NCBI GenBank assembly: GCA_963704165.1
Contig: CAVPHD010000003.1
Location: 448,001-512,000, forward strand
DNA: 64,000 bases
Reading direction: 5' to 3'
DNA from: an uncultured delta proteobacterium
GTDB lineage: Bacteria; Myxococcota_A; UBA9160; SZUA-336
In this document: piece after piece, positions 39,034 through 46,199 of the stretch
Position numbering within the stretch: position 1 is the first letter of the stretch
How the letters are laid out: the number at the start of each line of letters is the position of its first letter
Notes under the pieces: generated by a model
The model's database searches: none
The model's input: the letters and a program-made list of their open reading frames with translations, nothing else
Told to the model about the DNA's origin: nothing
Made by a program: the position numbers and the translations under genes

Positions 39034-39537
39034 TCAGGGGTGGTCGAAGATCGGGCCGCCGCGGTGCGCCTGGTGCACGATCGCCTCGCGTGGGAACTCC
39101 GCTTCGACCCTCTCTCTCAGTCGAACCGTGATCTTTTCGACCGTCGCGGACGGCGAGCCATTCTCGTAGTCGGAGACGGAGAACCAGAGCGCGCGTCCGT
39201 CCTCGCTCACTTCGAGCGAGAGATCGATCGGCAGCGAGAAGCTCTGCTTCCTGGACCACAATCCCAGGAGACGACGCGGCGGCAGCTTGCGACGGCTCAG
39301 GATCCGCGCGGACTCGATCCCGCCCCAGACCTCGTCACCGGATCTCATGCCCACGGCCTTGGCGACGTCCGCCGCCACGAACTCGGCGCGCCCGAGCGCA
39401 TCGGCCGAGAATCGATCCGATCCGGAGGAAACCTCGACGCGCGTCTCGGCGGTGTAGGTCCAGCGTGGAATCGGAGTGCAAGCGCTGGCAGCGAGAAGGA
39501 GCACCGCCACCCACAGCAGGCCTCGACGCTCGGTCAC
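39034..39537 (-). CDS. Lipoprotein, candidate immunity protein of the RHS toxin
   Basis: GTG overlaps the toxin TGA (GTGA); MTERRGLLWVAVLLLAASA/C lipoprotein signal; 167 aa; no recognisable family. Confidence 0.65.
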   Translation of the reverse strand: MTERRGLLWVAVLLLAASACTPIPRWTYTAETRVEVSSGSDRFSADALGRAEFVAADVAKAVGMRSGDEVWGGIESARILSRRKLPPRRLLGLWSRKQSFSLPIDLSLEVSEDGRALWFSVSDYENGSPSATVEKITVRLRERVEAEFPREAIVHQAHRGGPIFDHP

Positions 39538-45500: not shown

Positions 45501-46199
45501 GCTTCGATTCGCGGTCGCCCCCTGTCCGTACTCGATGCGATCGAGGTACGCGATGCCCGGCGACGACGTCGTGTCGTACACGTACCGGATCTCGTTTCCG
45601 CTGACGTCGGCCGTCCGCTCGAGCTGCCAGCTGAAGACCTCGCCGGGTGCGCTCGAGTCGTTCACGAGACGGCCCGCGCCTGACGAATCCGCGCCGTAGA
45701 CGGACACGCGCCCGTCGCGATCCGCGATCTGCCAGCCGGACGCGTCGCCGCGGAATTCGATCACGCGCCCGTCGTCGGACTGGGTACGGTACCGGCACGG
45801 CGAAGACGCCGTGCACGCGCGGCAGGCGCCTGACGAGCAGATCAGGTCCTGACCGTCGAGCACGTAGTCCGTCCGGTAGCACGCGAACACGCCACCCTCG
45901 CCACAGCTCATCTCCTCGAAATCCCAGGGGCTCGCGGTTCGCGTCTCGCGTTCGATCCGGCTCTCGCCCGAGAGCGACCAGCCGAGCCCCAGCCAGCCGG
46001 ACGGGCCACGGCCCTCCCCGCTCGAATAGACGAGCTCGAGCTCCGGCGCGTGGCCGGCGGGTCCGGGCGGAACGACGATCGGAATCCGATAGATCGCCTC
46101 GCCTCGAGCCTCGAGAGCTCCACCACCCTGCGCGTACGAGACGGGCGCGACGAGGCCGACGAGCACCGACAGAAGCGGACACCAGCCTCGAAGACCCAT
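39534..46199 (-). CDS. SpvB/TcB-like + FG-GAP + RHS/YD-repeat polymorphic toxin with inserted TSP3-dockerin and PLA2-like C-terminal tip
   Basis: Signal peptide; YRIPIVVPPG...PELELVYSS...GLGWSL (SpvB); DLNRDGLDD-type repeats; EKEFRGFG (TcdB midN); YD repeats; RHS core HLTDHLG...YAPFGE...FTGQ...YDYGARFYD...NPYSYVQNRPTSATDPTG. Confidence 0.92.
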   Translation of the reverse strand: MGLRGWCPLLSVLVGLVAPVSYAQGGGALEARGEAIYRIPIVVPPGPAGHAPELELVYSSGEGRGPSGWLGLGWSLSGESRIERETRTASPWDFEEMSCGEGGVFACYRTDYVLDGQDLICSSGACRACTASSPCRYRTQSDDGRVIEFRGDASGWQIADRDGRVSVYGADSSGAGRLVNDSSAPGEVFSWQLERTADVSGNEIRYVYDTTSSPGIAYLDRIEYGQGATANRSIDFVLNDPVNEPRADKPVRTRAGFRQQVERRVVSIEVRASNELVTSYALGYTQDPDSLRSRLSTVQRIGSDSLTSLPAYTFDYSERAPGDGFAQTNEPGFFGSATQCPPLGGLHADPSGNGFWNIADLNRDGLDDLYFVQGYSAIQTAGRTEVALGTGTRFLPGAGLACGFELARGSLWSIDRLFFASTSSLPTLQISGAATLDLDGDGFLDHVDRNGSYAAGSFDPVPVGLRLGSSSGFAEATLPTSLALPHEWDFDFGNAWNADDFWIRIATTENGVFDTRALLADVTGDGRPDLLATRGTTGFHYSDGFSSSPIWNAWTGWAVFANRGLKTDAGFGPFLDFGSEPILWPAAPGTTIERIGWGITSVALADQNGDGLPDRLTPDSVAYGYGAGFLPAENVANGLTASLVVAPQYVEAGLYDLNGDGLLDHVAAQHGPSDPYWHVHFGTGHGFNPSESLFRRVVDWLDERAIEADGLVVGSRSIRDVNGDGRLDYVAAGRRSVFLQDGVANHDGARTEPLAGLLTRAVDPLGGTVEFSYATSPQFRTAGGMPANPEMALRRPVVTRVAYRDGRANTPAIVSEFRYANGVFDFAEKEFRGFGTVVETRVESDADVSRITSSYRTDRTCAFRLASREVASGVSVLERESMSWVEVVGGGESVARQWGRCLASARVVEAIEGDELAMRVRRTSWNYGDPIDASYNVARIEEWGEWNPATNQDVPGDERITEFSYAPASDARPSIVSRPSLEVVVDRAGNVHSKRRYCYAGANACDSAGNGLLAVVTAYLTDYLASPPIIDVPKTIATIVHDEFGNPTQVTGASTPDDPDGLRTRVVYDDTYRTFPSEIRRGADVALPLRPLVTSFAYTGCEGGLAPPPGLGRPCSVVEPEGQIEQLGYDVFGRVKRVDRPASGYLATWSYTFPGPSAPGENAVEMRIHRSGDSDLVGRTHLDGLSRVYREESAGKQTESVSIDRTYDDRGRLRTESLPHSGGAVSSRVFSWDALGRPKLVLDPDATTRHAWSYAPWTTIEETYFGPPSAGDRVERTERMSDGLGRWVRVASHPDAVTLSDPHVVSAKYDAADRLYEVRDPIANDPSLCASLEMGPACAAQDHVTEIFWDTLGRRVRIDDPDSGIWRFDHDDAGRLVARVQNAGTSEARSERRSYDPLGRLRAKSFSPAGMGVANASFVYGTDASLSSFGQLIGVMAAEPSSTSYLYGYDEAGRRSSVVQRTDGLEFESSWEYDALDRVKRRVFPDGDAFEFAYDGVRLREIRADPANPAFTGVVVRDADYDALGRITSLEIGQRAGGAALAVQTYGYDPTSARLSRVRATPGNLLSDDPDADRVATSSDVCPNAYDPDQLDRGGLGDASGPDGIGDGCQCGDVDGSGRVTLADGFAILMHDFGDDPLVREDLCDVDGGGSCDPYDFVAVLTALWHGVGDLQRCRATTPSNLPSSAPIDLDLVFDGLGRLVTQSGVIGAEPVNRSYGYDGLSRLVTATGSWEKARDAAEPVTWTYRYDALGNLRRQVSSRPESFGGDHRTWGYFHASKPRVLTEFVEAGEQWEAIGSTLGGEVAQIDFGSGYGRDTLIWNTQGKLHRHRRSTYGYDVFGDLTLTSTGPSGAATSIVSVGGDFEYDVGAQRANKHFSIGGVRVASLATTPVTPGPTSGPGRFGRHAEPILAHLTDHLGAIRASVNRDGIVVETRDYAPFGESIAHAGAYSVAHRFTGQPQDDEAGGLYDYGARFYDARWNRFISPDEVVQDFDAPGLNPYSYVQNRPTSATDPTGMLIWNGVSYGAWSTATLQSGVLQTTPEPSAETPFIFGFAPGPAVGVTRVPAPGGIRKLPRVVASLGKVILTDLQAATLAIYSQLVIHPFMSLGMLIDRSVNGDVSGMGEAAGRLIRGTLVPRYGLQNGVFWGRGQTSNERLESVLDEAGFEHDGLCAGGCDNAADRTWIRIAWSDPFKLGPYGQAYRVVGTAAFGARIAWRSMTGQP

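Follow-up and report, generated by a model that had tools for sequence, protein, structure and literature searches.

The window considered here, a stretch of 64,000 nucleotides from an uncultured delta proteobacterium (contig CAVPHD010000003.1, positions 448,001 to 512,000), carries two overlapping genes that, judged from their sequences, form a probable antibacterial toxin–immunity pair. Both lie on the minus strand, as do all features given below unless marked otherwise. The larger gene, an open reading frame (ORF) at 39534-46199 with an ATG start, encodes a single-chain SpvB/FG-GAP/YD/RHS polymorphic toxin of 2221 amino acids (aa), recognized by Pfam, NCBIfam and PDB sequence matches and ending in a 207-aa tip (39534..40157) delimited by sequence, profile and structural model. 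The smaller gene, at 39034..39537, encodes a 167-aa lipoprotein, the candidate immunity protein, whose lipobox reads L-A-A-S-A-C (Cys20 at 39478-39480) and whose GTG start lies at 39537, a 4-base overlap with the toxin stop. A preliminary description of the locus had treated the toxin as self-contained, overlooking the downstream lipoprotein gene, a hydrophobic hairpin that relatives carry before the RHS core and a TSP3/dockerin-like insert. The toxin instead belongs to a two-gene unit in which the lipoprotein is linked to the tip in 17 of 17 cases. Nor is its architecture new: it is that of the TcdB/TcaC polymorphic class, which was defined in 2012 in a paper that also lists Tox-PLA2 on RHS proteins (PMC3482391).

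The predicted Sec/signal peptidase I leader spans aa 1-23 (46131..46199), combining a basic residue with a hydrophobic stretch that peaks at 1.59, and aa 21-24 read S-Y-A↓Q. The same pattern recurs in close relatives in other letters, ending A-x-A↓Q, and hydropathy together with this recurrence, judged by eye, makes a Sec-type leader likely. An SpvB (TcB N-terminal) domain follows at aa 32-227 (45519..46106, E 1e-14), then an FG-GAP propeller region with approximate limits of about aa 331-760 (43920..45209), in which Pfam matches FG-GAP/FG-GAP_3 at aa 517-614. The propeller is the most variable part of the body in close relatives, at 43-46% identity vs 59-68% in its flanks. TcdB_toxin_midN occupies aa 716-855 (43635..44054, E 2e-18), RHS_repeat is matched at E 2e-26, and the RHS-associated core covers aa 1914-2015 (40155..40460), matching TIGR03696 at aa 1935-2015. 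The core ends in PTSATDPTG (aa 2006-2014, 40158-40184), of the form PxxxxDPxG, and contains both predicted autoprotease aspartates, Asp1985 (in SPDEVV) and Asp2011. The nearest PDB sequences are TcdB2-TccC3 fusions (E 9e-16), matched in both the SpvB region and the core. The ORF, the single-chain TcB-TcC-like body, the autoproteolysis motif, the length of the tip and the position of its histidine codon thus all stand as first described, and the combination of SpvB, integrin-like propeller and RHS repeats places the protein in the TcdB/TcaC class.

The tip, the lipoprotein and their families

The conserved part of the tip, aa 2074-2221, consists of a hydrophobic helical hairpin followed by a predicted phospholipase A2 (PLA2)-fold core. 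It contains the motifs YG...GxxWG, D-x-A-x-x-x-HD and AD and, at its C-terminus, a GPxGQxYR helix; its key residues are Tyr2137, Gly2142, His2166 (codon 39702-39704), Asp2167, Cys2170, Asp2179 and Tyr2200. A 17-sequence tip profile searched against 1.84 billion representatives defined a family of 218 clusters at E<=0.001. Among the 150 representatives examined, the domain lies no more than 30 aa from the C-terminus in 147, and DPxG precedes it in 53 of the 72 whose upstream sequence is long enough. The 13 full-length carriers all contain RHS repeats, and 10 of them contain SpvB; PAAR and VgrG are seen in none. Ten entries of the family were looked up, two of them named, from Bdellovibrionota and Verrucomicrobiota. 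The histidine is kept in 147 of 148 relatives, the next aspartate in 148 of 148, Gly2142 in 144 and Tyr2200 in 133 of 148. Because they are conserved across the family, the HD motif residues exceed chance; a control in which the motif pattern occurred in 1 of 32,514 genome frames and 0 of 100,000 shuffles is circular and carries little weight, the pattern having been written after the family was seen. Phage tblastn and viral-contig scans found no relative, and an Anaerolineae match (L007) and two weak phylum matches were judged chance after their sequences had been read.

Some further tip-bearing genes appear damaged. In the source genome (G000:C1:687033-693687; L046, L045), three RHS core cassettes each follow a dockerin-like module, and the last ends in a second PLA2-like tip. 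A TAG within it and a shift of frame break this tip, but the lipoprotein gene behind it, of the same family and also 167 aa long, is intact. At three other loci (L049, G117:C1; L053, G086:C55; L043, G121:C472), the toxin genes seem split or frameshifted upstream of the tip, next to an intact lipoprotein.

A PLA2-like fold, proposed in the preliminary description, is supported by modelling. An AlphaFold model built from 108 tip sequences reaches a predicted local distance difference test (pLDDT) score of 96.5, vs 46.6 for an earlier fold from 7 sequences. Among 48,161 representative PDB chains, rice PLA2 (2wg7) is the sole one at Z>=5 (Z 7.1, root-mean-square deviation 3.0, 92 residues aligned), and the second-ranked chain has Z 4.9. 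Foldseek against viral proteins places a densovirus VP1 first (probability 0.92, E 0.079), with four further densovirus or parvovirus capsid entries among the best 50 matches. The parvoviral family PF08398 is the commonest Pfam family among the 108 aligned tips, with 5 matches (best E 0.0044), all below the cut-off, and in genome scans the tip was its sole match in 2 of 5 genomes. ESM Atlas leads also name PLA2 families (0.89, low recognition). Four methods, each giving weak to moderate evidence, agree, and we consider it highly probable that the tip adopts a PLA2 fold, a helical assignment that the model supports with a moderate score (Z 7.1). Lipocone toxins are four-helix cones in which His and Asp are spaced apart (PMC12419801); no Lipocone structure appears among the best 50 rows of the fold search, and the adjacent His-Asp pair fits PLA2 better. 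The tip probably belongs to the secretory PLA2 (sPLA2) fold, outside PF08398 and outside the motif-defined Tox-PLA2 family, whose motif DxC[ST], CxxHxxxYxN, C, assigned to the PDB 1kp4 fold in Table 2 of PMC3482391, is absent from the tip and from the columns of its family.

The lipoprotein forms a family of its own. Genes chosen solely by their position downstream of tip homologues align together, and all 18 share an invariant Cys and an invariant Asp. A scan of 225 genomes of the class with the tip profile yielded 17 matches, spread over 14 genomes; a homologous lipoprotein lies beside every one, as two tandem copies in G019 and in G182. The 34 lipoprotein matches comprise 19 that are tip-linked, tandems included; seven orphans at E<=3e-9 with no nearby tip match, six of which were read and one of which borders a contig edge; one match of lower score that stands in tandem in G028; and seven weak matches, of which the six read are unrelated proteins or frames. 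At one orphan locus (L090, G028:C127:23892-24889), two lipoproteins stand in tandem, one fused to repeats that we take to be Sel1-like. The lipoprotein matches no Pfam family and has low Atlas scores only, and the predicted complex of tip and lipoprotein scored 0.00, which is no evidence either way. Both the tip family and its lipoprotein partner family are uncatalogued in the libraries searched. A literature search for an RHS PLA2 tip with an immunity protein found no describing paper, and the data supplement of PMC3482391 may list family members.

Since the lipoprotein adjoins all 17 tip matches, it is likely the immunity protein of the tip toxin, with bacteria as the targets. Immunity genes typically occur also as tandem and orphan copies (PMC3482391), and lipoprotein immunity is reported for T6SS (type VI secretion system) lipases (PMC9860674) and for Lipocone toxins (PMC12419801).

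Proposed mode of action and alternative readings

The reading we favour, at a probability of roughly 60%, is that of a two-gene unit in which a TcdB/TcaC-class RHS cocoon with a predicted PLA2 tip damages the membranes of competitors and the lipoprotein confers immunity; by analogy, it may be likened to a TcB-TcC cocoon with an sPLA2 cargo. The leader would route the RHS chain through Sec, and once in the periplasm the chain would form a closed YD shell. Its core would then cleave itself after DPTG, as is described for other Rhs proteins (PMC8636562), leaving the 207-aa tip caged. Passage across the outer membrane would most plausibly use the type II secretion system (T2SS); the genome, where the preliminary description had proposed looking for one, has five secretin matches, one of them GspD-like, and GspK. 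Once released, the tip may dock on a membrane by its hydrophobic hairpin, and a site formed by His2166, Asp2167 and Asp2179 would hydrolyse phospholipids with Ca2+, while the lipoprotein would neutralize the tip in the envelope of the producer and its kin.

Several observations weigh against this reading. The source genome is 84% complete. The tip of the 2221-aa protein has no sequence match in Pfam, NCBIfam, PHROG or PDB; profile searches of PDB returned nothing significant, two snake-type PLA2 entries standing at E 2-2.8. Foldseek, a comparison suggested in the preliminary description, retrieved nothing from PDB at E<=0.001, returning only ferritin-like bundles, and Z 7.1 lies under the tool's safe level for helical proteins. 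At the Tyr position of HDxxY, the protein has Cys2170, and 39 of 147 relatives have Tyr. In parvovirus B19, the network of the VP1 unique region (VP1u) comprises Tyr130, Gly132, Gly134, His153, Asp154, Tyr157, Tyr168 and Asp175, and activity is lost on changing Tyr157, the HDxxY tyrosine, as reported in PMC3626588. The position of the second aspartate is variable, being Asp in 60 of 146 relatives, His in 39, Gln in 17, Asn in 9 and Glu in 7, and a close relative (L008, G007:C85:447-890) has Pro there. With respect to the lipoprotein, 16 of the 17 adjacent copies were in the search model, so that G019 is the one independent case of linkage. Over 13 pairs, lipoprotein identity follows tip identity no better than core identity (Spearman 0.33 and 0.42, respectively, and 0.10 and 0.32 without three close relatives), most of the pairwise identities being near noise.

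The preliminary description had listed a YGxxxG loop, an HD pair, a second Asp and a Cys in place of Tyr. All are present in the tip, but the second Asp is no constant of the family. The 2221-aa protein itself has His2166, Asp2167 and the second Asp, Asp2179, and Asp also stands at this position, unlike in L008, in the other copy of the same genome (G007) and in P0002. With Cys at the HDxxY tyrosine and the second Asp in only 60 of the 146 relatives, phospholipase activity is predicted less surely than the fold. The tip may accordingly be a membrane-inserting or differently catalysing toxin that has a PLA2 fold and the same lipoprotein immunity and is no classical phospholipase A2, a view to which the long hydrophobic, Gly-rich helices on both sides of the core also lend weight. 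We rate it as unlikely, at about one chance in five, though it is the strongest competitor, because the His-Asp pair and the Tyr-Gly...Gly...Gly loop are the best-conserved polar features, as expected of an active site, Asp2179 is kept, and the near-invariant Tyr2200 could stand in for the missing tyrosine. Cys2170 and another Cys four residues apart may form a disulfide.

A second alternative concerns the target. The closest solved relatives of the body are TcdB2-TccC3, and the toxin might, in the manner of Tc toxins or venom PLA2s, be aimed at eukaryotes, either protist grazers or prey, with a possible TcA-like partner that escaped notice and a lipoprotein serving as self-protection or chaperone. 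The TcA models PF03538 and PF18276 gave no match in the incomplete genome, in a search whose positive controls gave no signal. This reading is nonetheless improbable: strict lipoprotein linkage, tandem and orphan copies and tip swapping inside a single genus all point to conflict between bacteria. Host-directed effectors are described as being without immunity genes (PMC3482391). TcB and TcC of ABC toxins are not known to have Sec leaders.

Independence from T6SS, claimed at the outset, is supported by the lack of any match to VgrG, VipB or PAAR models in the 84%-complete genome, with working positive controls; Pfam finds no PAAR in the RHS protein either, in keeping with the full-length carriers above.

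Display, variable tips and comparison with known systems

Just N-terminal to the core motif DHLG, 22 of 28 scored bodies have one or two hydrophobic peaks of 19 residues, typically laid out as a segment, a basic loop and a segment ending A-x-A; one further row was unscored, and some rows stand for the same protein or nearly the same one. Of the 24 tip-family representatives of sufficient length, 21 show a peak, 16 of them two or more; in control YD windows the figure is 1 of 79. By comparison with these relatives, the 2221-aa protein lacks the hairpin and has a short loop at about aa 1886-1907 (40479..40544), and a remnant is seen in G007/P0002. In a midpoint-rooted tree of the YD region (15 rows, with P0004 and the distant bodies left out), these proteins form a clade (support 100/98) nested among hairpin-bearing bodies, so that the loss is probably derived and likely occurred in the lineage of the 2221-aa protein. 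The hairpin of the relatives is likely membrane-spanning. Most simply, it may be an outward-facing loop that tethers the protein to a membrane, a tether missing from the present protein; alternatively, it may act as a second signal sequence for core and tip. No paper describing a membrane-anchoring hairpin in TcB-like RHS proteins was found in a literature search.

If the hairpin were required for surface display, as its prevalence and, among close bodies, the restriction of its loss to this clade might suggest, the present copy could be decaying or non-delivered, or a predatory or nutritional lipase and not an anti-kin weapon. We regard this as the least probable of the alternatives, given that the 6.7-kb gene is uninterrupted, that the deletion preserves the reading frame, that the sister lineage combines an intact frame with a hairpin remnant, and that more distant bodies (L023, L026, L027, P0073, P0140 and P0152) are naturally without it.

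The 2221-aa protein also carries, as a clean insertion relative to its relatives, a module of about 120 aa in a YD loop (aa 1561-1680, 41160..41519), which we take to be TSP3-like or dockerin-like from its motifs. The insert has no Pfam match of its own, and Dockerin_1 did not list it. All five close bodies bearing this tip have it; L013, L014, L016 and L017 do not, nor do L048 and L051, which are distant but PLA2-tipped. Ten further ORFs of the same genome contain related modules, mostly near their C-termini, and no cohesin scored above cut-off in that genome. The insert may serve as a surface-attachment tag. Tentatively, and with odds clearly below even, these observations could be joined into one broader reading: that Sec-exported TcB-TcC cocoons are a widespread antibacterial system free of TcA and T6SS; that the pre-core transmembrane hairpin tethers the cage to the producer membrane or acts as a second signal; and that it has its own family of PLA2-fold warheads, in which the catalytic partner residue can switch between Asp, His and Gln, and its own family of immunity lipoproteins, the present locus being a released form in which the tether was traded for a dockerin-like tag.

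Tips vary on a conserved body, as in the TcdB/TcaC class. The N-terminal 710 aa are matched in 18 of 32 genomes of the family, and relatives with different tips, which the preliminary description had suggested seeking, do occur: the bodies of L013, L014 and L016 show 53-60% identity over the YD region and 68-73% over the core, while their tips and downstream genes are unrelated. Related bodies at L017, L019, L024 and L025 bear other tips followed by lipobox-bearing genes of unrelated sequence, which suggests that many tips of the class act in the envelope. Elsewhere, the source genome has another RHS frame, of 1902 codons, whose tip is unrelated (G000:C9:22992-28700; L047). In the window, the toxin–lipoprotein pair is convergent with a matrixin-like gene and a short-chain dehydrogenase gene (37466-39018, plus strand; L012), and the homologous pair on G007:C151 is flanked by the same two neighbours. 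Farther along, 32152-36267 (minus strand) encodes a protein of 1371 aa that has a signal peptide, TSP3 repeats and, at the C-terminus, a Cys-rich module, and that otherwise belongs to no known family.

Toxins of the TcdB/TcaC class have been predicted since 2012, and the locus bears on the question of what displays and opens them where TcA and T6SS are lacking. Three of its features could be put to use: the tip family with its predicted PLA2 fold, whose 218 clusters have no model in the searched libraries; a lipoprotein family that would fill the empty immunity slot of PLA2 tips; and natural pairs of relatives that differ in having or lacking the hydrophobic hairpin between shell and core, from whose comparison the anchoring or release of the cage might be learned.

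Tle effectors are T6SS-delivered alpha/beta-hydrolase or phospholipase D enzymes and not PLA2-fold proteins. The present pair resembles T6SS Tle/Tli pairs in that a phospholipase effector would be neutralized by a lipoprotein (PMC9860674). The TcdB2-TccC3 B-C cocoon shares SpvB, the propeller, the YD shell and the aspartyl autoprotease core, whereas the present toxin is one chain with a predicted Sec leader, no TcA found and a likely immunity gene. Bacterial teneurin-like proteins likewise have a Sec-targeted YD shell that cages a variable toxin, together with an immunity gene, but have FN-plug and NHL domains in place of SpvB/FG-GAP (PMC13018210). Parvoviral group XIII PLA2 (PF08398) is approached through the Tyr-Gly Ca2+-loop, the HD pair, the downstream Ala-Asp and weak profile and fold matches; no tip member passes the Pfam cut-off, however, the loop spacing is unlike YxGxG, the HDxxY tyrosine is Cys, and the His-to-Asp spacing is 13 in the tip vs 22 in B19 VP1u (PMC3626588). 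Tox-PLA2 is described in the available text of PMC3482391 as an RHS tip exported by T2SS, for which that text gives no immunity protein. The present tip shares with it an all-alpha PLA2 fold, as modelled, at the end of an RHS toxin, but lacks its motif, is closer to the PF08398 layout, and has in addition a hydrophobic hairpin at its N-terminal end and a lipoprotein partner. The closest likeness in architecture is to the TcdB/TcaC class, described as a signal peptide, SpvB and an integrin-like propeller with RHS repeats, with lengths peaking near 2200 aa. The 2221-aa protein matches it in its predicted leader, SpvB, propeller, RHS repeats, variable tip, size and downstream putative immunity gene, and differs in that the class description, in the available text of PMC3482391, does not place Tox-PLA2 in the class and includes no pre-core hairpin or dockerin-like insert.

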